From the IMG/VR virus record IMGVR_UViG_3300042197_002762, positions 32,001 to 96,000 of that record: 64,000 bases of DNA; one strand, given 5' to 3'. How positions within the stretch are numbered: the first letter of the stretch is position 1; each line of letters opens with the position of its first letter. Both the position numbers and the translations under genes were made by a program. This document shows, piece by piece, positions 1,213-49,613 of this stretch. This DNA is from a virus. The notes beneath the pieces are model-generated. The model did not search any database. It was not told where the DNA came from and saw only the letters and a program-made list of their open reading frames with translations.

Positions 1213-1719
1213 GGGATTTTTTTACTATTTTGAAAATTATTTTTGTTGACAATCCCCCCCTATTTTTGAAAAAATTCGAACGTTCGTTTTATTTTTTAGG
1301 GCCGGGGGGGTGAAATTTCAATCTCCTGAATATTTATTTTAATTAATTTAATTTAACCTGTCTTACTCTATATGTATATTCTATCTATTCTCTTTATATA
1401 TACCCCCCTGCCCTTTTCTAAAAACAATACGACTATTGTATTCAATATATACAAATCAATTTGAAAATTTGGCGGGGTATTTTTCTTTTTATTAATTTAA
1501 TTTAACCAGTTACTCTTATTCTTACTATTATATATAATTCCTATACATATTCCTATAGTAATGTATAAGTTTGGGGGGTATTTCTATATATATGTACCCC
1601 CTGCCCTTTTTTAAAACTTTGGGGATAAAATAATAATTATAATAATAATCAAATCAAAAAAAATCGGGGGCTATATTTTTTCTGTAATTTTAATTTAACT
1701 ATGGTCACAATAATGTCAC
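1213..1719. repeat. Non-coding AT-rich region with direct and inverted repeats (candidate origin or genome terminus)
   Basis: TTAATTTAATTTAACC at 1343-1358 and 1492-1507; TACCCCC(C)TGCCCTTTT at 1401 and 1595; complementary GGGGTA motifs at ~1474 and ~1575; palindrome CGAACGTTCG at 1277-1286. Confidence 0.6.
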
Positions 1720-22465: not shown

Positions 22466-23161
22466 ATGAAAGTTTTACAAAAAGGTGATGTGAGTGAAGA
22501 AGTAAAACAATGGCAATTGTTTTTGCAAAGTGCTGGTTATAAAATTCCTTATGTTGATGGCGCGTTCGGTCCAGCTACAGAAAGAGAAACATTAAAATTT
22601 CAAGCTAAAAATGGTTTAAAACCAGATGGCGTTGTTGGCCCAAAAACTTGGAAATTTGTTACCACTGTTTCTAATAACACGCCGCTTTCTCAGCGTTGGC
22701 CAAAACAAGATTATACAAGTATGGTTAATTTTTATGGGCCTGTGGGGGAGAATACAACATCTTTAGAAATACCGTATCCAATGAAACTAGCTTGGGATAA
22801 GGGTACGACAATTAAAAAATTTACATGTCACCAAAAATGTGCAAAGAGTTTTTATAATGTTTTTGAAAAAGTATTAAAAACATATGGAGGTAAAGAAATT
22901 GAAAGATTAGGTTTAAATCTATTTGGCGGATGCCTCAACGTTAGAAAAATGCGCGGCGGTAATTCTTGGAGTACCCATTCTTGGTCTTGCGCGATAGATA
23001 TTGATCCCGATAGAAACCAGTTAAGATGGGGAAAAGACCGTGCAAAAATGGCACATCCTGATTTTAATAATTATTGGAAATTTGTTGAAGAAGAAGGCGG
23101 CGTTAGTTTAGGGCGTGAAAGAAATATGGATTTCCAACATTGGCAATTTGCAAGATTATAA
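22466..23161 (+). CDS. Endolysin: peptidoglycan-binding domain plus M15-type zinc peptidase
   Basis: VKQWQLFL...DGAFGPAT...FQAKNGLKPDGVVGPKTW; RKMRGG..WSTHSWSCAIDID...DFQHWQF. Confidence 0.9.
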   Translation: MKVLQKGDVSEEVKQWQLFLQSAGYKIPYVDGAFGPATERETLKFQAKNGLKPDGVVGPKTWKFVTTVSNNTPLSQRWPKQDYTSMVNFYGPVGENTTSLEIPYPMKLAWDKGTTIKKFTCHQKCAKSFYNVFEKVLKTYGGKEIERLGLNLFGGCLNVRKMRGGNSWSTHSWSCAIDIDPDRNQLRWGKDRAKMAHPDFNNYWKFVEEEGGVSLGRERNMDFQHWQFARL

Positions 23162-24938: not shown

Positions 24939-24958
24939 ATAGAAAGAAATAAAATATT

Positions 24959-25495
24959 ATGGCAAATTTAAAACCATTCAGAGACTATGATGAGCATGAT
25001 GTTATTAACCTTTTTGCTGTAAACTCAGCTTCCTTAAATAAAGGAACTGTAGTTGTAGCAAATGGTAATGGCGTTGATCTCAAAAATAATCTTAGTTTAG
25101 ATAACCTTTCTCAATACGGAAACACTCTTTCCGCACAATTCAATGTTCCTTGGACCGTTAGCGCTGCACCTTCGGGTACTGCCAAAGGCCAAATCGTTGG
25201 ATTATTGCTCAAAGACGTTCGTTCTGTAGACGAGAATGGAGAACAGTTACTTTTCAGACCACGCAAGGCCGCAGAGATGGATGTCATCGTAAGTGGTCAA
25301 GCTTGCCCAATTTTAACAAAAGGGCTTGTACTTGTGAATGGTATTGTTGGAACCCCAGGAGTTGGAAGCGGCGCTGCTGTTTCTGATGCTGGGAACGGTG
25401 ATCTTAAAGTTGTATCTTATGCAAACGCAACAGTTGGTAAATTCCTTGGTCCTAAAAATGATGAAGGATATGCCCTCTTAAAGGTAGAACTCTAA
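24959..25495 (+). CDS. Head decoration/cement protein
   Basis: Small beta-rich protein between scaffold and MCP. Confidence 0.6.
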   Translation: MANLKPFRDYDEHDVINLFAVNSASLNKGTVVVANGNGVDLKNNLSLDNLSQYGNTLSAQFNVPWTVSAAPSGTAKGQIVGLLLKDVRSVDENGEQLLFRPRKAAEMDVIVSGQACPILTKGLVLVNGIVGTPGVGSGAAVSDAGNGDLKVVSYANATVGKFLGPKNDEGYALLKVEL

Positions 25496-25520
25496 TAAAA
25501 AAAATAAAGAAATAAAAAAT

Positions 25521-26645
25521 ATGAAAATTCAATTTGATAAAAACCCAGAGCAAATCGAGCTTATCAAAGCTCTTGCTTCAGATAACAAAACTGTAGCTAT
25601 GGAAGCCCAAGACGCTTTCGCAGCTTTCATCAGTGAAGTTATCCAGCAAGTTCTTTTACAAGCTGGTTCCGCTCCTATGATTTACAGAGACGTAGAATTT
25701 GATGAAGATGATTCACCTTCGATTCCTCTTGATCTTTACTATGGTCTTAATGAAGGGCACATCAGCGTATGGAGCCAAACTGTTGGTGGCGGATTGCCAA
25801 CCAATTTCGTACAAGGTATGCAAGAAATGAAAATCAACACCTATCGTCTTGATAGTGCGATTTCCATGGACAAGCGCTATGTACGTAGAGCACGCTTAGA
25901 CGTTGTTGCTGCTGGTTTAGAACGTATGGCCAATGAAATTCTTATTAAACAAGAACGTAATGCTTGGGCTGTTATTCTTAAGCTTTTAGCTGACGCTACA
26001 ACTAATGGTAGTAAACATGTTTTCCGTACCGGAACAGCTGGAACTTTCCAACTCGACGACATGAACAAATTATGGACATTGGTTCGTAGATTAAACACTG
26101 CTTACACAGGTGGAACTCCACAAGGTTTACAAAGCCGTGGATTAACAGACATCTTCGTAAGTCCAGAAATCAAAGAACAAATTCGTGCATTCGCTTATCA
26201 GCCAATGAATACACGCGCCGGAACAGTTGCTACAAGTGGTGCTACCGCAGTACCTCTTCCTGACAGCATCCGTGAAGATATCTATCGTGCCGCTGGTACG
26301 AACGAAATCTTCGGCGTAACAATTCATGAATTGCTCGAACTCGGTGAAGGCCGTAAATACAATGACTTGTTCGATACCTTTGCTGGTTCGACACAATTCA
26401 ATACTTATGGTCAAGCTGGTGGAACAACTTTCACAAGCGCAACCGATGAATTAATTCTTGGTATTGATGCTAGCCGTAACGCTTTCTTGCGCCCAGTCGC
26501 AATTCAAAGCGAAAGCCGTGGTCAAGTCAAGGTTCTTCCTGACGATCAATTCTTGGCTCGTAGCCAAAAAGTTGGTTTCTACAGTTTCGTAGAAGAAGGC
26601 CGCGTAGCCGTTGACGCTCGTGCAGCTGTTGGTTTAATTGTATAA
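25521..26645 (+). CDS. Major capsid protein (HK97 fold)
   Basis: 374 aa; position; strongly biased codons (CGT, TTC, GCT); followed by a strong terminator. Confidence 0.85.
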   Translation: MKIQFDKNPEQIELIKALASDNKTVAMEAQDAFAAFISEVIQQVLLQAGSAPMIYRDVEFDEDDSPSIPLDLYYGLNEGHISVWSQTVGGGLPTNFVQGMQEMKINTYRLDSAISMDKRYVRRARLDVVAAGLERMANEILIKQERNAWAVILKLLADATTNGSKHVFRTGTAGTFQLDDMNKLWTLVRRLNTAYTGGTPQGLQSRGLTDIFVSPEIKEQIRAFAYQPMNTRAGTVATSGATAVPLPDSIREDIYRAAGTNEIFGVTIHELLELGEGRKYNDLFDTFAGSTQFNTYGQAGGTTFTSATDELILGIDASRNAFLRPVAIQSESRGQVKVLPDDQFLARSQKVGFYSFVEEGRVAVDARAAVGLIV

Positions 26646-26669
26646 TTAAACTTAATAGTTTAAAAATTA

Positions 26670-26699
26670 AGGGCCACCCGCAAGGGTGGCTCTTTTTTT
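26670..26699 (+). terminator. Intrinsic terminator
   Basis: GGGCCACCC-GCAA-GGGTGGCTC followed by T7. Confidence 0.9.
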
Positions 26700-26728
26700 G
26701 TAAAAAAATTAGATTATTTTTATATTAA

Positions 26729-26734
26729 ATGTAA
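26729..26734 (+). promoter_or_regulatory. RTGTAA putative late promoter element
   Basis: ATGTAA 11 nt before the ATG at 26746, right after a terminator. Confidence 0.5.
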
Positions 26735-26745
26735 TAATATTTAAG

Positions 26746-27123
26746 ATGAATACTCAAGTTAAAAAGAAAAGGGGTCGCCCATCCAAAAAAGATATGCTTC
26801 AAATTCATGGAAAAGAAGAAAAAACTGTTAAACAACCATCTTCTTTAGATGAAATTTTAGGCGAAACTCTTTCAATATACACAGCTACAAGTTCCGAACA
26901 ATATCGTGGACAATTGGCTGAAATGAACATGACGGACTTACAGTCTCATGCTTACAAAATCGGTCTTATGCCAACACCAGATCGTAAAGTTCTTACGGAT
27001 CGTTTAGTTCAAGAATTCATTAAATGGAATTCAAGATATGGAAGTAATGTTATTGAAGGTGATATCAAATCTATTGATGACTTAGATGCTAGAGCCCGAA
27101 AGATCTTAAGAGAAGGCGCTTAA
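26746..27123 (+). CDS. Hypothetical protein with an AT-hook-like KKRGRPSK motif
   Basis: ORF track; basic N-terminus. Confidence 0.7.
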   Translation: MNTQVKKKRGRPSKKDMLQIHGKEEKTVKQPSSLDEILGETLSIYTATSSEQYRGQLAEMNMTDLQSHAYKIGLMPTPDRKVLTDRLVQEFIKWNSRYGSNVIEGDIKSIDDLDARARKILREGA

Positions 27124-27128
27124 TTCTT

Positions 27129-27134
27129 GTGTAA
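27129..27134 (+). promoter_or_regulatory. RTGTAA putative late promoter element
   Basis: GTGTAA 8 nt before the GTG at 27143. Confidence 0.5.
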
Positions 27135-27142
27135 AATAATAT

Positions 27143-27676
27143 GTGAACTGTACATATTCTTTTTCTCAATTTATAAATAGCGTATATAACGATTTAGGTA
27201 ATCCTGTGTCTTATCCATCAAGTCGTTTATCTGGATGGTTTTTAGATAGCTCAAATGCGGGAAAATTAAATAACTTAATTGGTACGCACATTTCTGGGGT
27301 TTGTTTTCAAAATTCTTCTGGAACAATTACTGGTTATGGTTTAATGCCAGAACCATCTTCTGATCAATATTCTATTTATAAGATGATATTCGACTGTGAA
27401 TATTTTAAAAGTGAAGCAAGATCTGTAGCGGCTAGATCTATAACTGTTGGAAATGACTGGACAGATTTAAAAGAGGGAGACAGTACTATTAAAAAAATTA
27501 ATAAGAATGAAATATCGAAGAACTTACGAGGGTTAGCTCAAGATTGTAAAGCTGAATTAGATAAAGCCGTAAAAATGTATCTTAAATATAATGCAATTCC
27601 TGATCAAGTTGTTGGAGATGATACGCAAGGCGTGTCTCATTATATAATTCAAGAATATCAAAGAACCCTAAATTAA
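27143..27676 (+). CDS. Head-tail adaptor (putative)
   Basis: Position after the MCP; helical; GTG start. Confidence 0.55.
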   Translation: MNCTYSFSQFINSVYNDLGNPVSYPSSRLSGWFLDSSNAGKLNNLIGTHISGVCFQNSSGTITGYGLMPEPSSDQYSIYKMIFDCEYFKSEARSVAARSITVGNDWTDLKEGDSTIKKINKNEISKNLRGLAQDCKAELDKAVKMYLKYNAIPDQVVGDDTQGVSHYIIQEYQRTLN

Positions 27677-27677
27677 T

Positions 27678-28109
27678 ATGCCAAGTCTTGTATCAAATGA
27701 AGAAAAATTAGCATGGGGAAATGAATTTAATAATATTCATGATACATTCGCGCGGCCAGTTACTGCTTGGAAAACTCCAGAACGTGTAGTTGTGTCTAGC
27801 GATCCAAATTATAATTTTTTATATAATGATCAGGAATCTATAGAGGTAACCTATATTCCTATTAGTGGTACTTTTGATTGTCGTATACAATGGAAAGACC
27901 CATCTAAAATGATGGGCTGGCCAGAAATTCGTGAAGAAGTGCGTGGTAATATTTGTAGAATAAAAGCTAAAAAAGATTTTGTAGATTTTATTAGTGATGC
28001 TGAAAAAATTGAGATTGACGGTCGTCCAGTCCAAGCCCTTGGCACTAACAGGCCACACGGACTTTTTAATATAGATTTTTATACTATGTTTTTTAAGGAG
28101 AGCGAATAA
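27678..28109 (+). CDS. Head closure/joining protein (putative)
   Basis: Position; small beta-barrel-like pattern (KIEIDGRP). Confidence 0.55.
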   Translation: MPSLVSNEEKLAWGNEFNNIHDTFARPVTAWKTPERVVVSSDPNYNFLYNDQESIEVTYIPISGTFDCRIQWKDPSKMMGWPEIREEVRGNICRIKAKKDFVDFISDAEKIEIDGRPVQALGTNRPHGLFNIDFYTMFFKESE

Positions 28110-28690
28110 TGGCTGGCACAATAAATAAAAAATTAATAGATAAAGAAATTTTTAACAGTCGTGCTGTCAAAAAAATGGTTCGAGATATGGTAAAAGTAGA
28201 AGTTGAAAAAGAGAAAGCTTTATTTCGCTCAGAATTTGAGTCACACCCAGTAACACAAGAAATTGAAGGTGGGGAAAGTGCTTCTAATATTTCTGGTACT
28301 CTTGGTGGTTATGGAAATCTATTTTCTTTTTTAGGCTTTAATAGAGGCGCAAACCCAACGACTCCTGTTAAAATTTTAATTAAAAAAATCTTACTAGATC
28401 GTAAAGTGCAAAGTACTAAAAATGGTTTTAAAATAAATGTGAATGTTCCATCTAAAGATGAATTCGGCGCGGTGGCACGATTGCCTTGGGAAGGCGGTCG
28501 GAGTTGGTTATTAGATATGGAACGGGGCATATCAGGTTTAGGTTCCTTTTTATATGGACGTTTTGAAGCTTCACGCTCTGGCGGCGGTATACAAAGTAAA
28601 TATAAATATTCTAATCGCGTATTTCGTCCTGTAAAATATTTTAGCCAAATGTATGTAAAATTTCTTAAAAGATTGTCATCAATAAAATGA
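28109..28690 (+). CDS. Neck/tail completion protein (putative)
   Basis: Position in the neck module. Confidence 0.5.
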   Translation: MAGTINKKLIDKEIFNSRAVKKMVRDMVKVEVEKEKALFRSEFESHPVTQEIEGGESASNISGTLGGYGNLFSFLGFNRGANPTTPVKILIKKILLDRKVQSTKNGFKINVNVPSKDEFGAVARLPWEGGRSWLLDMERGISGLGSFLYGRFEASRSGGGIQSKYKYSNRVFRPVKYFSQMYVKFLKRLSSIK

Positions 28691-29850
28691 AAGCAACTTA
28701 CATAACAAATTTAATGTCAAGTTTTTATTTATGGTTAGACCATGAAATTTTAACTCGTGGAGAAGCTTTTATAAATTATAGTGGTAAACTATATAACTCT
28801 CCAGATCCGAATTTTCCAACAAATTCAGTTTATAGCGCGCCATTTCGTCAATGGGTATATGATAGTAGCGTTCCAAATGCCAATATTCCTTCTGGAGTTT
28901 TTGTGAATGGAAATTATCTCAATCGTGGGACAAGTGGTTTAAATATTGATTTTAATAAGGGGCGCGTGATTTTAAATAGCGGTATTAATTCTAATAATAT
29001 TACAACCAGTTATAGTTTAAAAGAATATAATATATATTATACGGATGAACGTGAAGAAAAATTACTTTTCGAAAAAGCTTATAATGTTACTCCTAAAGTA
29101 ACACAAGTAACTGGGGGTTTAGGTTATTTAGATACCCCATATCCATGTATATTTATCAAACATCGTATGGGAGAAAATATCCCATTCGCTTTTGGTGGTG
29201 AAGAGTCTACAGAGACAATGATTCGCTGTATAGTATTAGCATCGAATAGTTTTTCATTAGATGGTCTTATTTCTATTTTAAGTGATAGTGCCAGAAAAGT
29301 TTTTCCTGTATTTAGTTCTGAAGATTTTCCGTTTAATTATTTTGGAGATTTTAAATTAAGTAATAATTTTAATTATTCTAATTTATGTAAAAATCAACAA
29401 TCAAATAGTCTTGTATATATTGATCGCGTCACAGTTTCAAAATTAGATGAGATTGATAATGCGAAAATTAATAAAAAATGTGTGGCCGCTATTGTGGATT
29501 TTGAATTGTCAGATTTAAGATTCCCAAGAATTTATGATCAGGTTTCTGAACAAGTTTCTCCAGGTTTACTTTCAAGTGTTAATGTTCAAAATGGGGGCTG
29601 GGGTAATTTAAATGGAACGTTTAATTATACCACTTTATTTCAAGGCAAGCCTTATTATAATAAGGATGGTGTTAGTAGTTGGTTTATAGCGTGGTTTGAA
29701 AACCAATGGAATATTTTTGATTTTTCAGAAAATGGTCTAGATGCGATTTATTGGAGTCCAGAAGATGTGCTATATCCATGGATGGTAAAAACTTGGTTTA
29801 CGATTAATAGCGCTTATTTACCAGTTCCTAAAGTAAATCAAATTATTTAA
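28687..29850 (+). CDS. Tail terminator-like protein with a C-terminal accessory domain
   Basis: Immediately upstream of the tube gene; Trp-rich extension after DLRFPR. Confidence 0.5.
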   Translation: MKATYITNLMSSFYLWLDHEILTRGEAFINYSGKLYNSPDPNFPTNSVYSAPFRQWVYDSSVPNANIPSGVFVNGNYLNRGTSGLNIDFNKGRVILNSGINSNNITTSYSLKEYNIYYTDEREEKLLFEKAYNVTPKVTQVTGGLGYLDTPYPCIFIKHRMGENIPFAFGGEESTETMIRCIVLASNSFSLDGLISILSDSARKVFPVFSSEDFPFNYFGDFKLSNNFNYSNLCKNQQSNSLVYIDRVTVSKLDEIDNAKINKKCVAAIVDFELSDLRFPRIYDQVSEQVSPGLLSSVNVQNGGWGNLNGTFNYTTLFQGKPYYNKDGVSSWFIAWFENQWNIFDFSENGLDAIYWSPEDVLYPWMVKTWFTINSAYLPVPKVNQII

Positions 29851-29886
29851 TAATTAAATTTATAGAGTGTCTTTAATAAAAATGTA

Positions 29887-29892
29887 ATGTAA
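29887..29892 (+). promoter_or_regulatory. RTGTAA putative late promoter element (tandem ATGTAATGTAA)
   Basis: 8 nt before the tube ATG at 29901. Confidence 0.5.
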
Positions 29893-29900
29893 TTATAAGT

Positions 29901-31007
29901 ATGGCAAGAAATAGAACAATTTACCAAGTATTAGCTCTTTATGCAAGTCAAGTTACAGCCGTAACAGGAATGCAAACAGGAGTAAATGATGTCAAACAGC
30001 TCTCTCGTGTTCAAAATTTTGATGAAGATTTTACACGTAACTTCACGGACGTTAACCAATTCGGTAACTTAGCCGCTATTGACCGTATCGAAACTGAAAA
30101 TCCAGATGTTACAGCCAGTTTTTCTTATTATGTTACAAATGGTCAAAATGAAAAATTCTTAGGTTTAAATGTTTATCCAAGTGGTACAGCTGAAGCCAAT
30201 TTACGTTCTTGTATTTCCGGATTGCTTACAAAAGCGACTGATGAAAAAAATTACTACCTCTTAATTGCTGACGAAGGTAATGATGCTGCTGGATATGCTG
30301 GGGCAACTACTGGCGTCATTGGAGTTGGAAATGGATTCTTAACATCTTATAGCGTAAACGCTGCTGTGGGTGAAATTGCAACCGCAGAAATTGAGGTTGA
30401 AGGTTTGAATATTCGTGTGTACGGAAACGCAACTGGAACCCCAGTAATCCCAGCTGTTAACCCAGTTGATGGATCAAATGTTACTGGTAGTTTCTTTAAG
30501 CTTCCACAAGCTACAGCTATTACAGGTGCTGGAATTCCAACGGCCTTACAACCTGGAGATATCGTATTCAATCTTCCAGCCGATAGCACAATTGGTTTTA
30601 CAGAAACAGACTTGAAAGTTCAAGATTTTACTCTTTCTTTCGATCTTGCCCGTACTCCTTTACAAAAACTTGGTAACCGTTTTGCGTTCTCTCGTGAAAT
30701 TGATTTTCCAGTTACAGCTACGTTAGAAGTTAATGCTGAAGTCGGTGATCTTAAAGATGGCAACTTATCTGATATCCTTTGTAGCGAAACTCTTAAAAAC
30801 TTCTCGATCTTGATGAAAGAGCCTGGTTGTGGAGCAACAAAGCCCACAGCAATTGCATATGTTTTTAAAGGCGCAAAACTAGTTTCACAAAGCTTCTCAA
30901 GTGCTATCGGTGATAATGCTACAATGACAGCCACCTATGAAGTTCAATTATCTGGCCCACAAGACACAGAAAAAGGTATCTTCATTTCTGGTAGTATTTT
31001 ATCATAA
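29901..31007 (+). CDS. Major tail tube protein
   Basis: Beta-rich, highly expressed codon bias, followed by a terminator, upstream of chaperones and TMP. Confidence 0.8.
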   Translation: MARNRTIYQVLALYASQVTAVTGMQTGVNDVKQLSRVQNFDEDFTRNFTDVNQFGNLAAIDRIETENPDVTASFSYYVTNGQNEKFLGLNVYPSGTAEANLRSCISGLLTKATDEKNYYLLIADEGNDAAGYAGATTGVIGVGNGFLTSYSVNAAVGEIATAEIEVEGLNIRVYGNATGTPVIPAVNPVDGSNVTGSFFKLPQATAITGAGIPTALQPGDIVFNLPADSTIGFTETDLKVQDFTLSFDLARTPLQKLGNRFAFSREIDFPVTATLEVNAEVGDLKDGNLSDILCSETLKNFSILMKEPGCGATKPTAIAYVFKGAKLVSQSFSSAIGDNATMTATYEVQLSGPQDTEKGIFISGSILS

Positions 31008-31030
31008 GTTAAATTATTCATAAAAAAATT

Positions 31031-31060
31031 AATGGGCACTTTCGGGTGCCCATTTTTTTT
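31031..31060 (+). terminator. Intrinsic terminator
   Basis: AATGGGCACT-TTCG-GGTGCCCATT followed by a T tract. Confidence 0.9.
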
Positions 31061-31065
31061 GTTTG

Positions 31066-31071
31066 GTGTAA
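31066..31071 (+). promoter_or_regulatory. RTGTAA putative late promoter element
   Basis: GTGTAA right after the terminator, 28 nt before the ATG at 31100. Confidence 0.55.
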
Positions 31072-31099
31072 TTGTTTGTAGGTAAAAGGTTTGTAAAGG

Positions 31100-31324
31100 A
31101 TGAATATTGATTTAAATGATCTAGTTAAAGGTTTCGTCTATAGAGACGTTAAAAAATTATATTTAAGTTTTTTATATTCTTTAGAAGATCTTAAAAGCCA
31201 AGATAAAATCAGTGATGATGAATTCCAGAGAATGCGTAAACGTGTTCTTGATTATGGAAATAATTGTTACAGAAATATAGAAGAAGAATTAGATAATTTT
31301 GATTTTAAACTAAAAGAAAAATAA
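31100..31324 (+). CDS. Small hypothetical protein
   Basis: ORF track, AAAGG upstream. Confidence 0.75.
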   Translation: MNIDLNDLVKGFVYRDVKKLYLSFLYSLEDLKSQDKISDDEFQRMRKRVLDYGNNCYRNIEEELDNFDFKLKEK

Positions 31325-31333
31325 TATAAATAT

Positions 31334-32128
31334 ATGAATAAATGGTTATACGAATTTGATGCAAAGAATATTATAAAAAAAGATGATGGTTCACAAGAAA
31401 CTATTATTAAGAAGTTTGCATTATTAAAACCAAATCGTCGTCTGCGCGAAGATGGCGAACTTTTTTACGCCGCTGAAACATCGCGTTTTGCCAAAGCTGG
31501 CGTTTTACCAAAAGCTGCATGGGGAACAATTCTTTCAAACGGTGGTGGTAGTATTAGTGATCAGGAACGTGAAGAATATGGTAAGTTACTTTTGAAATTC
31601 CGTGATTTATCTTTTGAATTACAAACTATTTTAATTAAAGGTGAAGGTGAAAGAACTGAAGCCGAAAAACTTCGTTCAGAAGAATTAATTAATAATCTCG
31701 AAGATATACGTAAAGATATTCAAAATTTTGAAGCTTCACAAATTTCTATTTTTGAAAATACGGCTGAAGCAAAAGCTCGTAATCGTACAATTCTTTGGTG
31801 GGTTATGAATCTTTCTTACGAAAAAGACGGGGAAAATTATAAACCAATTTTTAAAGGAGAAAACTTCGAAGAAAAACTTCTTGAATATGATGGTTTCGAA
31901 GAAGATGAAAATAAATACGAATTTTTATTATCAGTAATTAGAAGAGTAATGTATTTAACTACACTTTGGTTTTTAGGGCGTGTAGATTCCGCAGACGATT
32001 TTAAATTATACGATGATAATTTCTTAAAAGAAAACAAGTCAGATCCAGAAACGAAAGAAGAGCCTAAAAAAGAGACGGAAAATCAAGAGAAAAACGTTTC
32101 AGTTATTGAAGAAATAAAGCCAGAATAA
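31334..32128 (+). CDS. Tail assembly chaperone (putative)
   Basis: Helical protein between tube and TMP. Confidence 0.6.
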   Translation: MNKWLYEFDAKNIIKKDDGSQETIIKKFALLKPNRRLREDGELFYAAETSRFAKAGVLPKAAWGTILSNGGGSISDQEREEYGKLLLKFRDLSFELQTILIKGEGERTEAEKLRSEELINNLEDIRKDIQNFEASQISIFENTAEAKARNRTILWWVMNLSYEKDGENYKPIFKGENFEEKLLEYDGFEEDENKYEFLLSVIRRVMYLTTLWFLGRVDSADDFKLYDDNFLKENKSDPETKEEPKKETENQEKNVSVIEEIKPE

Positions 32129-32129
32129 T

Positions 32130-33152
32130 GTGGAAAAACACTCTGAATATGGTAGGTTGTATAGTGAAATATGTAGGGGGTTTTCACAATCTTTAATTAG
32201 TAAACGCTCTGTCTATTTTAAACATCCTACTTTAGCAGAACATTTTTCAATATATTCTAGTTACGATATATTTTTAAAAGAAGGTAAGAATAAAGGTTTA
32301 TACTCAGAATCAGAAAAAATCGAAGAAGCTATTAATAATGGTTGGTGGTCATCAGAAAATGAGTCAAAAATAAATTTTCTCAAAAAGACTGTACAAAATT
32401 TATTTAAAACAAAAGATAAATTATTATACCCTTCTCAAAAAGTAGAAGTAGAAAAACAAATTAAACAAAACGAGTCTATTCTTATTACGTATACAAAAGA
32501 ACGTAGAGAAATAGTTGGTTATACTTTGGAAGATTATGCTAGTAGTAAAATGACCGAAGAATTACTGATTTTTTTTACTTATGAAAATCAGGATTTTACC
32601 AAAAGACTATTTGAGAGTAGGGAAGAATATTATGATTTAAATGACGAGCGTTTAAAAAATATTAAAAATGCTTTTGATACGTACTCAGAAGTATTTAGCC
32701 ATGATAATATTAAAAAAGTTGCCGCCACTGGGTTTTTTCAAAATCTTGTATATTTAAACGATGATGCCCATGGGTTCTGGGGTAAAGCCACAACTAACTG
32801 TACAAAATATCAAATAGATCTTCTATTGTACGGTAAAATGTATAAAAATATTATTAAAAATTATAACGAATCTGGTAAGTCTGTACCAGATGATGTGTTA
32901 AATGATGCTGAGAAACTTGTAATGTGGATTGACAATCAATCAAAAGATACTTCTATTAAATCCAAAAATAGAAAAAATAAATCTGGAGGTTCTAATCTTG
33001 TCACAAGCCCGGTTGGGGCCACAAAAGAAGACTTAGATAAAATTGGCGTTAAAGTTGAAAAATTACACGGTAAAAGTTTATTACAACTAGCAGAAGAGAA
33101 AGGTGGGGTACTCGAAAAATCAGAATATTTCAAAGCGCGCGAAAATAATTAA
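32130..33152 (+). CDS. Tail assembly chaperone 2 (putative)
   Basis: Helical protein directly upstream of the TMP. Confidence 0.55.
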   Translation: MEKHSEYGRLYSEICRGFSQSLISKRSVYFKHPTLAEHFSIYSSYDIFLKEGKNKGLYSESEKIEEAINNGWWSSENESKINFLKKTVQNLFKTKDKLLYPSQKVEVEKQIKQNESILITYTKERREIVGYTLEDYASSKMTEELLIFFTYENQDFTKRLFESREEYYDLNDERLKNIKNAFDTYSEVFSHDNIKKVAATGFFQNLVYLNDDAHGFWGKATTNCTKYQIDLLLYGKMYKNIIKNYNESGKSVPDDVLNDAEKLVMWIDNQSKDTSIKSKNRKNKSGGSNLVTSPVGATKEDLDKIGVKVEKLHGKSLLQLAEEKGGVLEKSEYFKARENN

Positions 33153-33191: not shown

Positions 33192-36100
33192 ATGGCTGCT
33201 ATTACATTAGATATTGGTGGAAATACTAGGCGTTTAGACAGAGATATACAAAAGACTGTCAATAAGGTCTATAATATTAATTTAAAGACTAAGGGTGACC
33301 AACCACTTGGACGTATTACTGGACAAGTCAATGAATTTAATAAGTCGTTAGATGCTTCTAATGCTCGTGTTATTGCATTCGGTGCTAGTGCTGGTATTAT
33401 ATTTGGAGTTGAGAGAGCTTTTACTGCTTTGTTAACTTCTGTTGTAGAAGTTCAAAAATCTCTACAAGATATTAATGTTATTCTGAATGTTTCATCAAAA
33501 GAATTGCAAAAATTCGGTGGAGAATTATTCAATATTGCAAAAAATACTGGGCAAACTTTTCAAGCAGTTGCGGAAGCTGCTACAGAATTTTCTCGTCAAG
33601 GTTTGGGTTTAGAAGAAACTTTAAAAAGAACAAGTGAGGCTTTAATTCTTTCTCGTTTAAGTGGGTTGGACACCGTAAAAAGTGTTGAAGCTCTTACTGC
33701 TGCCGTAAACTCATTTGCAAGTCAAGCTGTTAGTGCCACAGAAGTCGTTAATAAGTTTGCGACCGTTGATGCTGCTTTTGCTGTTAGTTCCGCAGATCTT
33801 GCTGATGCCGTTGCGCGTGTAGGTAGTAGCGCGGCACAATCTGGGGTTTCATTAAACGAACTTATTGCGATTGTCACATCAGCACAGCAAACAACTGCTC
33901 GTGGTGGTGCGGTTATTGGTAACTCATTTAAAACAATTTTCACAAGATTACAAAGAACTAAAGTAGTAAGCTTATTAGAAAGTCTTGGAGTGGAAACGGT
34001 TGGAGCTGGAGGCCAAGTTAAGTCAACAATTCAATTATTACAAGACTTAGGCACTGTATATGATACCTTGGGAGCGCAACAACAAGCATATGTAGCTGAA
34101 CAGGTCGGTGGTGTTTTCCAGATTAACATTTTAAAAGCTGCTTTAGCTGACTTAGGTAAAGAATATTCTATTTATAATAATGCTCTTAATGTTTCCGCTA
34201 GCGCTACGGATCAAGCAGTTAGAAGAAATGAAGAATTAAATAAAACTTATGCTGCACAATTAAATGCCCTTCAAGAAAATGCAAGACAATTAGCAGCAGT
34301 TGGTGGTGAAAGATTATTTGGGCCATCCATTGATAGACTTGTTGGTGGAACAAATCAATTGTTATCTGGATTTAATGAAAGTGACGCTCAGGGGTTTGGC
34401 GTTACCCTTGGTCGGGGTATATTAGATGGTTTAGGTCAATTTATTGCTGGACCAGGTCTTGTGTTAATTGGAGGCGTTCTTCTTAAATTATTTAAAGATT
34501 TAGCCAATTTTGCTACTGGTAGCGTCAAACAACTTTTAGGATTAAATACTGCTTCTGCTCAACAACGTGATTTACAAGCAAGTATATCTCAAATTTTATC
34601 AAAAAATCCCCAATTAATAGATCTCGCCCTACAAGGGCAAAAAGGATTAAATACTGTTGCAAATCAATTGCTCACAAGTTTACAACAGCAAACCGTTGAA
34701 TTACAAAAACAAGCTGCTTTAGCTTCTCAACTTTCTAAAGCTTTTATTGGTGCAGGAGTTCGTATTAGTGGCGGAATTCCAGTCGCACCGACTCCAGGAA
34801 GACCTGGAAAAGCTGCTGGTTATATTCCTAATTTTGCTTCGCCTCAAAATAAAATAGCAGAAACTATTGGGGCTTATCAGGCTGGTTACGAACCAGGAAG
34901 AATTTTTAATAAAAGACTGTACGATGGACAGGGAGGTTCGTTTTTAGCGACAGTAAATAGTGCGGAATCTTTTGATACAGTTGTTGGCCCTAATGGGAAC
35001 AAGGGCACATTTGTTACGCCACCAAATGGTTTTGCCGCAAAAGGTTTTGTACCAAATTTTGCAAAATCAATTAAGACAGACGATTCATCAAAGATATTTG
35101 GCGCTGGACGTGTTTTTGAAAATGCGGTAGGATTAGCAGCTGGTCTTCAAAAAGAATATTTTGAAGATAATTTTATATTAGATTATGAACCAAATGTCTG
35201 GGCTGGAAAACAAGATATTAAAAAGATTTTAGGTATTAATCAGCGTACTAATTACGGAGATGCAAAATTAAGCGCTCAGGGTAACAATTTAACAAGTTAT
35301 CTTTCAAAAGTAATTCGATATGATAGTGGATTACGTGGAGTTCAAAAAGTAGGTAATATTAAAGATTTTAATCAAAAATTTGGCTTAAGAAAAAAAATTG
35401 ATATTAGTAAACGTGGCCCTAATAATATTAATTTATCACAACCGGGTGGTGGAGCTGTTATTATACCTGGAAATAAAAAAGGTGATGGATCAAAAGATCG
35501 TACAGTAAATATTAAAGCACGTTTAAGTGAATTAAAAAAAGTAAATAGTTCCATTGCAAATGTTTTTGCGAATCCAAATAATAAATATGGCATAGACCCA
35601 AAAAGTAAATCAGACCCCATCTTTTCTTTAAAAAATGTTTTGATTGATACTACAGAGGTATTAAGAAGTGGTACTTTTGGGGCACAAGGAAAAGAAGAAA
35701 GAGAAAGAAAAGCTAGAAATATTGCTTCTAGATTTACGTCAAAAAGTTTTGCTTCTGGTTTCATCCCAAATTTTGCACAAACACCAACACAATCTAATAA
35801 AGTAGTAGAACTCGGTGATACTACAACTAATCCACTTTTTAGAGGTAAGGTTTCATCTTTAATTTATCCACAGGTTTCAGAAAACAAGTCAAAAGCCCAA
35901 GGTGAAACAACATACTTAGGCAAAAAATATAGAGGGCTAGTTTCGATAGCTGGTATTAATAAAAAAGCCCTTAAAGGTGAGATACCTGATTTAGAAGCAA
36001 ATTTAGATCAGCTTTTACTCCGTGAAGCGAATGAATTTGGCCGCGCAATTGGTGGTACAGAATTTTTACAATCAGCATCAGAGCTTCCAAATATTGGCGC

Positions 36101-39100
36101 TGCTAAAGGTGCCGTTGGTGTGTCTTTTGAAGGTGGATTATTAACATTACTTAAAAGAGATGTTCAGAAAAGTGCTCAAAATGCTCGCATTGATTTTACA
36201 CAAGATCGAATAAACTCTAAATTTAAATCTCTATTTCATGGTGCTCCTGGAACTTATGAAGCAAAATATAGCCCTTCTTTAACTGGCGAAGTTTTGCAAA
36301 AAATGTTAAGAGGGGCTGGGGTTGGTGAAGTAAAGCGAGTAAAAAGTGGTCCTGGAGCAGGAGCTTCGATGAAACAGAGAGAAGCGGTTTTAGCTAGCAT
36401 TAATAAAGATGTAGCGGAAGGTAGAATTACTCAACCAAGAAGAGGAAATGCTCTTGAGGCAGAAGTAAGAAGAAGATTGCCTCTTATGTTCCCAGGTTCG
36501 GTAAAAGGCGCTGCCGCTGGTTATATTCCAAATTTTGCAGCACCACTCGTAAGAGCAGTAGACGACAAAGAATTACGAATGATGTTATCTAAATTTGGCA
36601 AAGGATTTTCTTTCCAAGGTAAATCTTCTGAACAGTCCGCCTTAGAGTTTTTTGGCGGATCTGGAACTTATATGTGGGATGCTCTTTCAAGACCAGGCGA
36701 ACAAATGAGCGACAGACAAGCTTATAAACAAAATATTGGTCGCGCAAAAAATTGGTCCACAGCTAGAAAACAAAGTTCTTGGCTGGTAAGATATAATAGA
36801 AGTAAATTAAAAGATTCCGAGCTACTTCCAGATATGGAAACTGGTGGCGCTTCTGTTTACGGATTACCTTTAAGTAAAGATCAAATTGTTTGGCCTATTA
36901 AGCAAGCTAATGGGGCTGGTAGAATTTTTGAAAAAGATATTCCAGCATTTTTAAGTGGCCAAGTAAATGATGCAATAAAACGTGAAAGAGAAGCTGGTAT
37001 TCCTAAAAATAAAATTTATTTGGCGCAAGAAAAAGCTCTTACTAAAACAAATCCTATGGGTCTTGGAGTATTTAATAAATTACAAGAGCCAAATGCCGCT
37101 ACTAGAAAAACAGCTATGCGTAGCAAGGGTTTTGCGAGTGGTTATATTCCCAATTTTGCTATTGAAGATCCGGATATGCAAGCTGCTGATTTGGGTTCAT
37201 CTATTGGAGCAGTTGTTGCGCAATTAGGATTTTTAGCTTTTGGCTTACAAGGGGCTGGAGAGCAATACAAACAATCGTTAGCAGAGTTAACAAAATCAAA
37301 TGTTAATACTGCAAAAATTAATTCCAAAAATCTTAGAGAAAGTACTTCAAGAAGACTTCTTGTAGGTAATACTGCTGCTGCGCAAGGTGGGGCCAGAATA
37401 CGACCGGATGGGTCTCGTGGTCGTGATTTTTCAAACTATACTGGGGGTAAAACGGGCAAAGAATTTGGTGATTTGAGAAGAGCGTCGAGAAGCCCACTAT
37501 CACAACAAAGAAGAGATGAGGCGGCTAGAGAACTAAGAGCAGCTAGAGCAGCAGAAAGAACAGCCGCAAGAGGAACTGGTGGTCAAAAATTTGCAGCAGC
37601 AGGTAAGGCTGGTGGATTTGGTTTGGCTTTAGCTGGCCCGATTTTAGGTGAAACAATTAAAAATGCATTTGGACAAGAAACTCCTGGCGCAAGACAGGCC
37701 GGAACTGTTGCGGGAGCAGCTGGCGAAATTGCAGGTTTTGCTGGCACAGGAGCTATATTTGGACCTGTTGGTGCGGCAGTTGGCACTGTAGTTGGCTCTT
37801 TACTGACAATACCAAAAATTGTGGGGGCATTCGCTTCCGACTTCCCAGAATTATCTAATGCGGCTAAAAAAGCTGGAGAAGAATTAACGAAATTTAGCGA
37901 TTCTGGAGCGAAATTATTAACATCATTTGAAACTTTACAAAAAGGATTGGAAGATCCTGGAACTTCACAAGAAGTTATAAATAAAGCATCGGAAGAATAT
38001 GCTAAAATTTTGTCTGGACTTTCCGCAGAAGATCAAAAACGTTTATCTGCGGCTGCAAAAACGGGAAAATTAGAAACTGAATATGCGAAAATTTTAGCAG
38101 AAAAAACTGCTGAATTACAATCTAGAGAAGCTGCTGCTAGCTTAGGTCAAGCGACTGGAGATGTAGAATCAAGGAATTTTATGCGAAATGCCGCGAGCTA
38201 TCTTAATTATTCTCCTATAGTGGGTGGAGCTAGCGCTATTTCACAATCTCTTGGTGGTCCAGGCTTACAAGATTATATAGATTATTATTTACCAAGTTTA
38301 ACTGGAGTGGGTACCGAATCTGATAAAACAAATCAAGCTGTTTTTGCACAATCATTAACGCAAGGTAAAAGTGGCGGAGATGCTCTAAAAGCTTTAGAAA
38401 AAGCTGGGGGTACTGGTGTTGTAAAACAACTAAATCAAATACAAACTGGAGACGTTGGCGCTTTAGAAGCATTACTTAATAAAGTAATTCCAGAGCAAGA
38501 GGGTAAAGCTGATATTGTCGCACAATTTATTGCACAAGCAAATAATAATGCCCAAGATTTTCAAAATGTTGTTGGTAGTCTTGGCCAAAGTTTCTTAAAA
38601 ACAATGGAAACTGCAAAAGGTGCTAAAACGGCTGCTGATGAAATGCTTGCAGCTCAAGAAGCAGAAGCTAAAAAGAAAAAAACGGCAGTAGAAGCTACCA
38701 ATAAAATTATAGAAAATTTAGAAAGAAATATAAGGGTTGCGCAATTTGCAGCAGAATCAGAAAGAGCACTCGCTCGTTCTAGAGAAAAATTCGCTAGACA
38801 AGAATTATTTGCAGATCGTTTTACTAGAAAAACGGAAACAGCTGGGGCAATTGTTGGGACAGACGCCCCATTAGCACAAGCTTTTGGGTTAAGAGAAGAA
38901 ATTGCTACTATTGCTCAATCACAAATAGAAAGTATTGAAAATATAAAATTTAGTTTTGTAGATACAATTAATTCTTCTATTAATGATGCATTTAAAGATG
39001 CAACAGGCGCCACCATTTCAGGGGCAAGGCAGGATGGAACATCTAAAGATGTAACAAAAACAAATGATCAATTATCTTCACAAGCTTTTCAACAAACTCG

Positions 39101-46900: not shown

Positions 46901-47178
46901 TTTTAAATGAAGAGTTTTCTAATCAATTAAATTATTTTATGGTTAAAGAAGTCGATCATTATAACAATTACGCATTAAATTCAGGAATTTCCGGTACTTT
47001 ACCGTTTAATAAACCATTTAATCACGGATGCTCTCAAGTTTATTATAATGGCATTAAACAAAAAATTGGAAATAATTATGTGGAAAATAGTCGATATGAT
47101 CTAATTTCTGGAACTTTTAACCAACCAAGTGAATTTCAAGAAGTAATTTATAATAATACTGACGATTTTTTTGTGTAA
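43996..47178 (+). CDS. Tail protein with a LamG-like N-terminus and FG-GAP-like beta-propeller repeats
   Basis: FSGYMDRLYIFN; GAGAIYIYTG, GRKIKISNDGNTI, YGQNIELNGLG, GALYTY. Confidence 0.65.
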   Translation: MVNIISGMNFLVEALNIDIQDIPAAFSFRANPTFNTNIIYPDPWASGSSSGILNTVGGNGFFTYSGTGNFNGNNYFNLNKNYSFNNSTIFLSYEKLRSGNEILLSSITGNSFNNSSGFNLGINDANKLYLKYWNNVEGPFTFTYSGILSDKNIIVINRSDSIITLGHFNNNTFEFSSQEFEIFQNNFINSSNLFIGGTPNRPNWDLNNPSNFSGYMDRLYIFNNIPFVYANVLSRGLFSEPTGFAGELEEYCYTTGFLSGSGFSYSTVTGVLVSGFQSGITGITGYQEVISGSSFTGITGYSGKYLGSYIDNCGNNIDIIEQVPLSGIISNEITITVPLTGITFVTGFVDVPLIGVETGIQNVFVTGLICDSYFNNIGDVLYAYDEPYLSSLSYKEISLLTTVNPNKIEPTGNDIIEIYAEKYQPKTLEYNKNLAYDTLNENYFYIDREFKPNEVLMFGNGQALIDNGYELIPSGYEIIRSPNFDYFITGTTVETNKFFGAKDYLFYDFFSGRSSFYPRLSNIFGEVFYQSSNSGVDAFVFKNGQKLISGIDYSVDRLNSAQLIYGSGNRAELGWNLNLNEDGDLLMVSDRGSRTIAQNLYIYNKDSNSQWNSSQTLTGLMKIVWTGPNSVISRDFGSYLSKNGKVLVVLNSKEIDIFTGSKNSNWSLCKNFKYSANFPLGSVFHTQSVQITDVITPLNEVTMNYDGSLILVNAPRLSGYSENSRILILTGSLENGDWVQTSFLDTSLLYIRPYSLRQLNLNNDGTILGIAERFSAWPGPFVGHVRILTGFINNWNLCSIISGSGIGGSLAMSNDANIICTSNPYSGNNISQYGAGAIYIYTGSVSNGWNLKQTITGSHDNRGDAIGRKIKISNDGNTILFNAGISNNTSPTKNRIIKYKGNKNMGWLPDNIYYPNNFQQDSEFINYGQNIELNGLGNAFMTTAPTTTIYPNESVGALYTYGEGMNLYFLNEEFSNQLNYFMVKEVDHYNNYALNSGISGTLPFNKPFNHGCSQVYYNGIKQKIGNNYVENSRYDLISGTFNQPSEFQEVIYNNTDDFFV
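47173..47178 (+). promoter_or_regulatory. RTGTAA putative late promoter element
   Basis: GTGTAA includes the upstream stop codon; 29 nt before the ATG at 47208. Confidence 0.4.
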
Positions 47179-47207
47179 ATTAAATAGGAATATAAAGGAA
47201 AAAGGAT

Positions 47208-49613
47208 ATGGCAATTAAAAATGTACCAACAATTTCTGGACCAAATTATGGAGGAGTAATATATGGTCTTAATCTTAGTATAGGTTATTCAGCAGAACCA
47301 TCTAAATTAACAATTGATATTGTTAATGAAAATGGGGTTTATGCTACACCATCATTAAATTCACAAACGCAAGTAAGATTTGGAAATTTTACTTTTAATG
47401 GGACCGTATGGTCTTATACTTTAAAAGAAAGCGCCGGAGAAAAAACTTTGCAAGTTACTCTAATAGATAATAGTATTATTTTAGATAGATATTATGTTTT
47501 ATTATGGAAACGTGGATTACTTGGTCTAAACGGAACGTTACAAAATAAAAATAAAACTTTTGATTTTAGTGATGAGAGTATTTTAGTACCACAAAGAAAT
47601 AATAAATTATCTGGTTTTGGGTATACGCAATTTATTGAAAGAAGATTGGGCCGAGTGACAGTTCCTTCAAAATCTTATACATTAGGTAGTAGAAGAGTTG
47701 GAAATGTTATTTTAGTTGGGCATGAAAAATTTGCAAATTCTGTTTGTGACATCCCAGATACTTATTATACATTTAATGATTTAAGAGGTCAAATTCCAGT
47801 AAACATGTCTTCTGCCCCAAGTAATGATACTTGGAAAGCCACTCACGAAGGAACTTTAAGAGAAGTGTTAAGCAGTTGGTGTTCAGATTTAGGTTTCGAT
47901 TATTATTGGGATTTTTCTTCAAATACTCTTAGGTTTTTCGATGTATCCGTTGGTATTTCTAATGTTCCTGATATTTCTGGTCCTAATATTATTTCTAAAG
48001 AAAAATCGGTTTCCATGCAGGGAACATTTAGGCAATATGGTATTGGATATACGGCAATGCCGCGATCTGCGGTTAAAGCCTTAAGTGCTTCTAAATCTAG
48101 GGTAGTATTATATTCTTTATCTCCATATCCAATAAGTTACTTTGTAAATAAAATTGGCGCTCCACAGGCTATTAATGCAGATAAAGGTAAATGGGGTGGT
48201 AGAAGAAGTCAAGATGATTTTGTTCATGCAGCGTTCTTAGGTTTCGTTTCAAGAAGTTTGAGAGATTTATATTGTTTTCGAAATGAACACTGGGAAGCTC
48301 TTGGCTATAAAGTTGATAGTGGATTAACAACAAATAAACCAAAAATCATAAGTGCTCTTAAAAAATTTGGTTTTCAAGATATGATTTCAGATTTAGAAGC
48401 ATTTGATGCTAAGGATTTGCCTAATTATGATTTTAATTTTATTAACAGGGACCCCACTATTGCAGATAAGTGGCATGAAATAGAACAAAAACTATTACAA
48501 TATCATGGTAAATATTATAGGGCTTCAGATTCTTCTGGTTCTTTCTTTTATTGTAATTCTAATTATACAATAGAGGTTGAAATATCTGTTGACCCAGAAG
48601 GCCAAGTGCAAGAGCAAGGTAGTGAAAATTTCGCTGGCCGAAAAATCATTGATAGGGGTGGAACAATGAGTCATGATGAAACAAGCGCTCAAGAAGCCAT
48701 TGGTTATGAAAATTTAACTAATGAAATTCAAAATTGCGCTCCAATACATATTGATTTAAAAGAATCTGGTATTTTAGACTCTTTAATAACTGCAAAAATT
48801 CTTTCAGGGAGTAATTCTAAAAAAATAAATACTTTAGTTATTTTTCCAAATAGTGAAAAATTTGTAAAAAATAAAATAGGTTTTAGATCTTCAACAAGTA
48901 GGGGTTTAAATCCTCTTGAACAAACATTTTATGATCAAAAAAATGCCAATATACAATCTGGTAAAAAAAATTGTCCCCAATATGACGAAAGTTTAGAAAA
49001 AGGTTCATGCAAAGCCGCTGAAGAAATTGCTAGAGATACCGCAATTAAAAATGCCGGAGGTACAACTAACGATACAGATAACCCTGATGATTATATTAGC
49101 GGATTAATAACAAAAACAGCTAAGTCTTGTAGCATATCTTTAAAAGGTGGAACTGTAAGAATTTTCGCTCCATCAGACGGAAGTTTACAAGTTGTTTGTA
49201 GATATAATATTAATATTAATAAACTTACTACCGTTGGAACTGAACAATTTTTATGGTCAGCTGGTTCCCCTGGTGGCGCGAATGATGTCGCTGAAATTCG
49301 TATTAATAATGAAAATATTACGGATCCAGACGAAGATTCTTTTCAATCAAGAAGACCTGGAAATTTAATTAAACCAGCGGATGCTGTTTGTGCAACACCC
49401 CAGCAAGAAATTAAATATGTTTTTGCTGGTGAGCCAGAAGGCGTAGCGTTAAGTCCAACTAATGGGTTATCAAATTTAGATATTAGCTTGTCGTCAGATG
49501 GCTTTACAACAACAGCTACTTTTGCTACAAAACCGCCAAAACTATCAAAAGCCAATAATACAGTAAGATATGTCCAATCACAATTTAACCGCGCTTCTTA
49601 TAACGCTTCATAA
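47208..49613 (+). CDS. Baseplate hub/central tail tip protein (putative)
   Basis: N-terminal hub-like pattern (SKLTIDIV; LREVLSSWCSDLGFDYYWD). Confidence 0.55.
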   Translation: MAIKNVPTISGPNYGGVIYGLNLSIGYSAEPSKLTIDIVNENGVYATPSLNSQTQVRFGNFTFNGTVWSYTLKESAGEKTLQVTLIDNSIILDRYYVLLWKRGLLGLNGTLQNKNKTFDFSDESILVPQRNNKLSGFGYTQFIERRLGRVTVPSKSYTLGSRRVGNVILVGHEKFANSVCDIPDTYYTFNDLRGQIPVNMSSAPSNDTWKATHEGTLREVLSSWCSDLGFDYYWDFSSNTLRFFDVSVGISNVPDISGPNIISKEKSVSMQGTFRQYGIGYTAMPRSAVKALSASKSRVVLYSLSPYPISYFVNKIGAPQAINADKGKWGGRRSQDDFVHAAFLGFVSRSLRDLYCFRNEHWEALGYKVDSGLTTNKPKIISALKKFGFQDMISDLEAFDAKDLPNYDFNFINRDPTIADKWHEIEQKLLQYHGKYYRASDSSGSFFYCNSNYTIEVEISVDPEGQVQEQGSENFAGRKIIDRGGTMSHDETSAQEAIGYENLTNEIQNCAPIHIDLKESGILDSLITAKILSGSNSKKINTLVIFPNSEKFVKNKIGFRSSTSRGLNPLEQTFYDQKNANIQSGKKNCPQYDESLEKGSCKAAEEIARDTAIKNAGGTTNDTDNPDDYISGLITKTAKSCSISLKGGTVRIFAPSDGSLQVVCRYNININKLTTVGTEQFLWSAGSPGGANDVAEIRINNENITDPDEDSFQSRRPGNLIKPADAVCATPQQEIKYVFAGEPEGVALSPTNGLSNLDISLSSDGFTTTATFATKPPKLSKANNTVRYVQSQFNRASYNAS

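Follow-up and report, generated by a model that had tools for sequence, protein, structure and literature searches.

Tape measure proteins (TMPs) are the first phage proteins to reach the host, and very few of them have been shown to bear an enzyme, in each case as a fixed fusion. The TMP of mycobacteriophage TM4 has a peptidoglycan-hydrolase motif, and YomI of SPbeta is annotated as a transglycosylase as well as a TMP. The 5002-amino acid (aa) protein gp96 of Thermus phage P23-45 bears a virion RNA polymerase at its N-terminus and is a TMP that carries an active enzyme into the cell (PMC10770324). In phage T5, pb2 has a C-terminal metallopeptidase and is cleaved after R1127 of its 1219 residues into pb2* and pb2C (PMC10038345). 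Large multidomain proteins of phages and conjugative elements, called polyvalent, are believed to accompany the DNA into the host, and their processing has been predicted; GNAT and ADP-ribosyltransferase (ART) are listed among their domains (Iyer et al. 2017, PMC5512222). Here, we analyzed a TMP encoded in a window of 64,000 nucleotides (nt), corresponding to bases 32001-96000 of the 178,478-bp IMG/VR record IMGVR_UViG_3300042197_002762, the genome of an uncultured aquatic phage with direct terminal repeats and a GC content of 33.5%. In this TMP and its relatives from more than 500 uncultured genomes, a structural protein forms an expandable rack with one strict peptide at every joint, on which some 60 families of modules are shuffled.

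Five Copies of a Peptide Motif Divide a Giant Tape Measure Protein

The gene at 33192-40742 encodes a giant TP901-type TMP of an uncultured aquatic siphophage lineage. PF10145 (PhageMin_Tail) matched aa 116-307 with 84.1 bits (Pfam gathering cut-off of 33.2), and TMP families of PHROG matched the protein with a best E-value of 2e-51. Using a regular-expression scan, we found exactly five copies of the motif G[YF][IV]PNF, with the Gly at aa 543, 618, 856, 1110, and 1317 and thus spaced by 75, 238, 254, and 207 aa, when the composition of the protein itself would predict 1.5e-5 copies. Both the positions and the spacings given in a preliminary description of the window were thereby confirmed by translation and pattern scan. 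In all frames of the complete genome, the motif was absent outside of the TMP except for two loose matches in frames of 21 and 38 codons. The five 27-nt copies have 18 to 24 bases in common with mainly synonymous differences, and the 60-nt sequences flanking them share 9 to 26 positions, which is the random level. Hence, the view that the repeats are conserved as protein and diverged as DNA holds, as does the contrast in composition that was noted between the segment they divide and its surroundings. Indeed, aa 601-1300 contain 8 to 14 Lys and 4 to 12 Ala per 100 residues, against 13 to 22 Ala in the flanks. The module array sits between two hydrophobic segments of the TMP (Table 1). The N-terminal 620 aa, including aa 1-540, are 70-82% identical to the closest relatives, and the identity falls to 30-50% in the C-terminal half, where Ala, Glu, Gln, and Lys are enriched over the last ~1000 aa.

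The architecture of the array is module A, module 2, the core module (module 3), and module 4a fused to module Z. The preliminary description had counted four modules between the repeats; its spacings stand, and its fourth module of 207 aa turned out to be two units, a ~140-aa domain (4a) fused to the ~55-aa last small module (Z). This fusion without a motif is common to this phage and its six closest relatives. Elsewhere, module 4a stands alone between two motifs (P0045/L083, L068, and L002), and it precedes the core module in P0009 and P0045 but follows it in this phage. Module 2 is a diverged paralogue of the core module and module 4a is an extra domain, both being additions to a minimal set. 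The residues E, A, G, N, E, and P are invariant in module A (alignment A8), and R, E, G, L, N, P, G, V, N, D, and E are near-invariant in module Z (alignment A4). The two small modules were compared as possible homologues, which was rejected at an hhalign probability of about 1%. We also considered the peptide DIPAFL (aa 1254-1259) as a decayed sixth motif and discarded it, as an alignment of 15 family 6 modules showed that IFEKDIxxFL belongs to domain 4a; the genuine motif of the relatives falls ~10 aa beyond the equivalent position.

No Pfam, PDB-sequence, or fold match was obtained for any module of this TMP. The enzymatic cargo proposed earlier was therefore not recognized in this window, and no enzyme fold is established for the modules of this phage. 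In the AlphaFold model of 4a and Z, the predicted local distance difference test (pLDDT) was below 50 for 4a, for which only seven close sequences were available, and 70-87 for Z, which is predicted as a helix, two strands, and a helix; it was about 27 for the motif trailing Z. An ART identity was also considered for module 4a. The only lead, a weak one, came from language-model features (Tox-ART-HYD1, score of 0.93, 130 shared features), with no Pfam or PDB profile support. The ART triad is R-S-E or H-Y-[ED]; module 4a has no His, and the Glu of PDMET, its candidate residue, is not conserved in L084.

For the core module, the AlphaFold2 model (67 sequences, both motifs included) reached a pLDDT of 85.5 and a predicted template modeling score of 0.73. 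It predicts a compact alpha/beta domain, a four-stranded meander followed by helices, and not the extended helix that would have spoken against the preliminary interpretation. Residues 1-16 and 255-267 of the model, which hold the motifs, had a pLDDT below 50. Across the 67-sequence alignment, G976, F979, E980, F1015, K1025, and K1037 are invariant and D1001 is near-invariant; position 1023, which is D in the consensus of the family, is E in this phage. A stretch of ~70 residues is common to modules 2 and 3 (hhalign probability of 93%, E-value of 2.4e-7, 69 columns), and the ordered E..D..(D/E)xK signature of the PD-(D/E)xK nuclease superfamily, an order known from nucleases with the restriction-endonuclease fold, is present in module 3, with the same pattern in module 2. 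The simplest interpretation of these residues is that the core of the two modules forms a metal-dependent site of a nuclease-like or nucleic-acid-binding type. Its nuclease-like character is an unproven candidate. None of the 67 core members matched families of the PD-(D/E)xK clan at E-values up to 1, and the profile of the core module had no relevant match among PDB sequences. No fold match to the module 3 model was found in PDB or BFVD, where the compared rows span only residues 200-262 and not the E..D..(D/E)xK core.

A Family of Motif-Bearing Tape Measure Proteins

With aa 530-1335 as the query, a word-seeded protein search gave 239 proteins, which are 1.4-3.7 thousand aa long and with few exceptions carry an annotation as TMPs of the TP901 family. 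When 1.84 billion representatives were searched exhaustively with phmmer, the 138 matches were all giant TMPs or TMP fragments; short matches in that search, considered as stand-alone or split forms of the modules, look like contig-end fragments. IMG/VR held 516 loci with a related array, and a DNA-pattern scan of this database found 79 of 80 enclosing frames to be TMP-like among the matches listed. No related locus was found with a single module as query. Among cultured phages, tblastn with the array had no match in 50,697 records, and the N-terminus of the TMP was only ~26% identical over PF10145 to proteins of Bacillus, Lactococcus, and Staphylococcus phages, PF10145 being common to SPbeta-like TMPs such as YomI at this level of identity. 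In genome collections, relatives were present only in aquatic bins of metagenome-assembled genomes (Proteobacteria, Neomarinimicrobiota, Halobacteriovorax, Verrucomicrobiales, Cellvibrionales, and Flavobacteriaceae). These are probably mis-binned phage contigs, and we draw no host assignment from them.

To describe architectures, module families, and the motif logo, we used 120 TMPs. They carry 3 to 12 copies of the motif at irregular spacings of 48 to over 1000 aa, the first copy being almost always at aa ~540-550. The logo of the 676 copies, with percentages, is A73-x-G100-[F61/Y37]-[I71/V27]-P100-N98-F97-A84, with flanks that are unconserved apart from an upstream basic or Gly tendency. The inter-motif segments fell into about 60 BLAST module families and formed 85 distinct architectures. 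Profiles were built from module interiors, with the motifs excluded, and profile-profile comparison linked only a few families, indicating that the module diversity is real. The minimal architecture is an N-terminus of 540 aa, module A, the core module, module Z, and a C-terminus of 1000-1700 aa, and almost every one of these relatives has modules A, core, and Z. When P0001 was aligned with 196 TMPs by BLAST, 50% of the ends of high-scoring segment pairs lay at most 15 aa from a motif, whereas a uniform distribution would predict 13%. About 110 further ends lay at aa 1250-1260, the 4a/Z junction, which is a former motif site where relatives carry the motif. Modules are thus gained, lost, fused, and reordered across the family, with breakpoints at the motif. 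The comparison of homologous TMPs that the preliminary description had called for therefore shows inter-motif modules that vary in number and identity behind a highly conserved N-terminal region of ~540 aa. This outcome favors the preliminary interpretation, which we regard as partly supported overall. Because A, core, and Z are near-universal, they look like fixed parts rather than swappable cargo.

The motif between A and 4a is degenerate in P0043, P0047, and P0061, where it reads GIIPNF or, without the Gly, KDIPNF. These cases and the 4a-Z fusion indicate that individual motif copies can decay. Other relatives, including P0002, P0020, P0021, P0033, P0075, P0077, and P0086, have a second set of motifs in the C-terminal half, which bounds a helical region of ~1000 aa, a segment of 580-790 aa, and a Z-like small module, and leaves a C-terminal piece of nearly constant length (120-130 aa).

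Enzyme domains were found in relatives. GNAT (PF00583) was detected above threshold in 5 of 30 scanned TMPs, where it fills one motif-bounded module. In P0076, one of these five, the domain covers aa 1359-1414 within a motif-bounded module of 174 aa (family 10). DHHA1 and HHH each gave a single weak match among the scanned relatives. In L135, located on the same contig as L021, a motif-bounded module in a minus-strand frame begins with the Walker-A sequence GPSGSGKT, which suggests a P-loop NTPase or kinase cassette.

Role of the Motif

It is possible, and this reading ranks first, that we are dealing with a polyvalent TMP whose motif is a processing site, although both cleavage and delivery are what we infer. 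Since the TMP would leave the tail ahead of the DNA, it would take the modules along into the host envelope or cell. The motif would be recognized by a protease or would undergo assembly-dependent self-cleavage, and the chain would be cut between modules during tail maturation or post-ejection, so that the TMP would behave as a polyprotein. The strictness of G, P, N, F, and A amid unconserved flanks, as seen in the logo, argues for such a site. Codon usage within the motif equals the background (CCA, 57% vs. 58%; AAT, 93% vs. 87%), which indicates selection on the peptide and not on the DNA. The motifs flanking module 3 and the one after Z are predicted to be disordered next to confidently modeled domains, and therefore fit an accessible linear site; as in polyproteins, a uniform conserved site lies in accessible linkers, here by prediction, between folded domains. 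The variable copy number and irregular spacing favor a catalytic reader over a structural partner of fixed stoichiometry. The confinement of the motif to the TMP within the genome, the breakpoints, and the GNAT domain filling one motif-bounded module of relatives point in the same direction. So do the parallels with the cleavage of T5 pb2, both in the sequence of the site and in its distance from the C-terminus, and gp96 of P23-45 serves as a precedent for a TMP that brings an active enzyme into the cell (PMC10770324).

Several observations weigh on the other side. No peptidase family was found in the TMP (E-values up to 0.1), in its modules (up to 10), or in 30 relatives (up to 0.001), and no protease was identified among the neighbors of the TMP, which lacked any family match. 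Cleavage at the motif is a matter of deduction, with no product observed, and the resemblance to the T5 site involves three residues, is weak, and was spotted post hoc. The motif is also more strictly conserved than most protease sites. No module of this phage matched a known enzyme fold or family, and modules A, core, and Z, being near-universal, resemble machinery more than cargo. Three copies of folded 25-kDa domains would not fit the ~4-nm lumen of a tail. That this phage and its closest relatives have lost the motif at the 4a/Z junction can be listed here as well, but it is neutral between readings and implies that single sites are dispensable. A stricter version of the processing site, which we consider doubtful, is a true polyprotein. 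The TMP would be cut at every A-x-G-[FY]-[IV]-P-N-F-A after assembly or ejection, freeing a phage-specific set of proteins ahead of the DNA. The cut would be made by an unrecognized protease, either borne by the tail or provided by the host; alternatively, the chain would cleave itself at N/F in an Asn-mediated reaction that depends on assembly, as happens when the capsids of tetraviruses and nodaviruses mature. The freed proteins would be the nuclease-like core and, in relatives, GNAT and P-loop modules. A cut before F or Y would give the products a bacterial N-end-rule residue, and hence a built-in lifetime.

Ranked second, and in our opinion rather unlikely, is a docking or assembly element, each copy of which would bind a tail component (the tube lumen, a chaperone, or the other two TMP chains) and keep bulky or unfolded modules in register during tail assembly, with the TMP remaining uncut. 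The motif is indeed disordered, amphipathic, and strand-like, with aromatic-Pro-aromatic residues on one face, it is confined to the TMP, and two conserved genes at the chaperone position lie directly upstream in every locus. Moreover, gp96 of P23-45 is full-length in virions (PMC10770324). However, neither a periodic tube nor a fixed partner is easily squared with the irregular copy number and spacing, a given site may be lost, and in cis the AlphaFold models place the motifs on nothing. The near-universality of A, core, and Z speaks for the reading ranked third, in which the modules are integral ejection machinery (a plug, a trans-envelope channel, or a pilot of the DNA end), the variable ones adapt it to different host envelopes, and the motif is a flexible, protease-resistant hinge. 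Two further observations agree with it: the hydrophobic segments on either side of the array are of the type seen in membrane-inserting parts of TMPs, and no enzyme family was recognized in the modules of this phage. We nevertheless consider it unlikely, since near-invariance of G, P, N, and F is not required of a hinge, since GNAT and P-loop (Walker A) modules in relatives are cytoplasmic-type enzymes, and since some 60 module families, most of them unrelated to each other, make a large number for a mechanical part.

The motif could also be conserved mainly as a DNA recombination joint for cassette exchange between co-infecting phages. Breakpoints do fall at the motif, and random motif copies share 17.4 of 21 nt with exact runs of about 10 nt, a usable microhomology that results from the AT-rich codon bias. 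Still, synonymous positions vary exactly as background codon usage predicts, and the five copies of this phage share only the 18-24 of 27 nt given above. We therefore disfavor this reading, which ranks last and appears highly improbable, and the recombination joint of the preliminary description does not account for the conservation. Microhomology may ease exchange without explaining why the motif is conserved.

If the motif is a processing site, these phages have a new route for delivering tailored sets of proteins, and their compact natural "linker grammar" might be adopted in engineered delivery systems. If the true polyprotein is correct, hundreds of aquatic phages possess a plug-in protein-delivery rack. 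Should the motif be a docking site, it would show how tail assembly accommodates bulky domains. Either way, the motif makes it simple to search metagenomes for early-acting phage effectors. A well-defined structural and biochemical target is the universal core module, which combines invariant E/D/K residues with a confidently modeled structure of no known fold.

Genomic Context of the Tape Measure Gene

Despite being well conserved in ~80 metagenomic loci, all ten large structural open reading frames (ORFs) around the TMP gene (23205-33152 and 40748-49613) lacked matches in Pfam and PHROG, which indicates a structurally uncharacterized phage lineage that is remote from cultured phages. The synteny of the three ORFs upstream of the TMP gene (368, 264, and 340 aa), which themselves had no Pfam or PHROG match, is kept in about 75-80 loci. 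Homologues of the 264- and 340-aa ORFs were found at the same place in 77 and 81 loci, respectively. These two ORFs (31334-32128 and 32130-33152, + strand) are separated by one base, the second being in the +1 frame relative to the first and listed from a GTG; tblastn alignments of relatives start at its first residue. The pair may represent a programmed frameshift of chaperones or merely two adjacent genes. In the distant relative L083, Pfam domains of lambda-type gpM, gpL, and gpJ lie downstream of the TMP, indicating a non-contractile tail.

Further upstream, a 231-aa ORF (22466-23161, + strand) matched PG_binding_1 (E-value of 1.7e-13) and, weakly, Peptidase_M15_4. Its product is probably an endolysin, which would imply a host with peptidoglycan. 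Far from the tail block, a 346-aa ORF (17756-18796, + strand) had a weak match, under the cut-off, to BppL_N, the N-terminal domain of a lower baseplate protein (E-value of 1.1e-4).

Table 1. Coordinates of the TMP gene, its motif copies and modules, and upstream genes in the window.
Feature	Position (nt)	Position (aa)	Strand	Remarks
Putative major tail protein, by position only	29901-31007		+	Conserved 368-aa ORF; up to 95% identity in syntenic loci
Putative tail assembly chaperones, by position only	31334-33152		+	Pair of adjoining conserved ORFs, 264 aa and 340 aa, immediately upstream of the TMP gene
TMP gene	33192-40742		+	Single ORF, 2516 aa
Conserved N-terminal region	33192-34811	1-540	+	Many invariant columns; includes PF10145 (nt 33537-34112) and a hydrophobic segment
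N-terminal hydrophobic segment	34416-34508	409-439	+	Hydropathy scan
Motif copy 1	34812-34838		+	AAGYIPNFA
Module A	34839-35036		+	First small module, 65 aa; BLAST family 2 (53 members); in nearly all relatives
Motif copy 2	35037-35063		+	AKGFVPNFA; main similarity breakpoint towards relatives
Module 2	35064-35750		+	228 aa; family 5; in 16/120 relatives
Core of module 2	35103-35324	638-711	+	GxxFE..LDY..GDAK; common to module 3
Motif copy 3	35751-35777		+	ASGFIPNFA
Module 3	35778-36512		+	244 aa; near-universal core family (113 members in 120 TMPs); core at nt 36117-36302
Motif copy 4	36513-36539		+	AAGYIPNFA
Module 4a	36540-36968		+	~140 aa; family 6; in 15/120 relatives; highly conserved
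Module Z	36969-37133		+	Last small module, ~55 aa; RE..AG..NPxGLGVxN..DEP; joined to 4a without a motif between
Motif copy 5	37134-37160		+	ASGYIPNFA
C-terminal region	37161-40742		+	~1190 aa; hydrophobic/Gly-zipper segments, Arg-rich stretch, long Ala/Glu/Gln/Lys-rich presumed ruler
Hydrophobic/Gly-zipper segment	37182-37262	1331-1357	+	Hydropathy scan
Hydrophobic/Gly-zipper segment	37590-37847	1467-1552	+	Hydropathy scan
Hydrophobic/Gly-zipper segment		2346-2379	+	Hydropathy scan

Comparison With Known Systems

The TMP described here resembles P23-45 gp96, T5 pb2, YomI, and the TM4 TMP in being a tail ruler with folded functional domains and hydrophobic segments, of a kind that leaves the tail before the DNA. 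Those proteins have one or two fixed domains, however, and none has been described with a repeated delimiting peptide or with a shuffled array of 3 to 12 modules. T5 pb2 and lambda gpH, which is converted into gpH*, show that TMP processing during tail morphogenesis can separate a functional C-terminal piece. The local sequence of the pb2 site, GNANSFVPR/AEGG, has the [FY]-[IV]-P core in common with the motif, and about 10 of the 120 relatives have a motif 102-130 aa from their C-terminus, which compares with the cleavage zone of pb2. In contrast, pb2 is cut at a single site by a protease that is unknown or host-dependent, and the TMP of this phage has no motif near its C-terminus.

Polyvalent proteins combine several disparate activities in one polypeptide; here, the five separate modules have no assigned activity, and relatives carry GNAT. 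TMPs are never mentioned in the account of these proteins, which describes no uniform inter-domain motif and predicts processing through embedded zincin-like peptidases (PMC5512222), none of which was detected in this TMP. In the searchable literature, the motif strings occur in no paper, and we found no account of a uniform delimiting peptide combined with family-wide cassette shuffling in a TMP. What is new is thus the motif-delimited, shuffled TMP array, not found in the literature, as opposed to enzyme-carrying TMPs and polyvalent injected proteins, which are known.

Uniform protease sites are a feature of viral polyproteins, such as the heptapeptide sites of the potyvirus NIa protease, which is encoded in cis. 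Like this TMP, potyvirus-type polyproteins have a conserved site of 7-9 residues in flexible linkers between independently folding domains. They belong to RNA viruses of eukaryotes and their cis-encoded protease is known, whereas here, with no known protease, the carrier of the modules is a structural protein of the virion.

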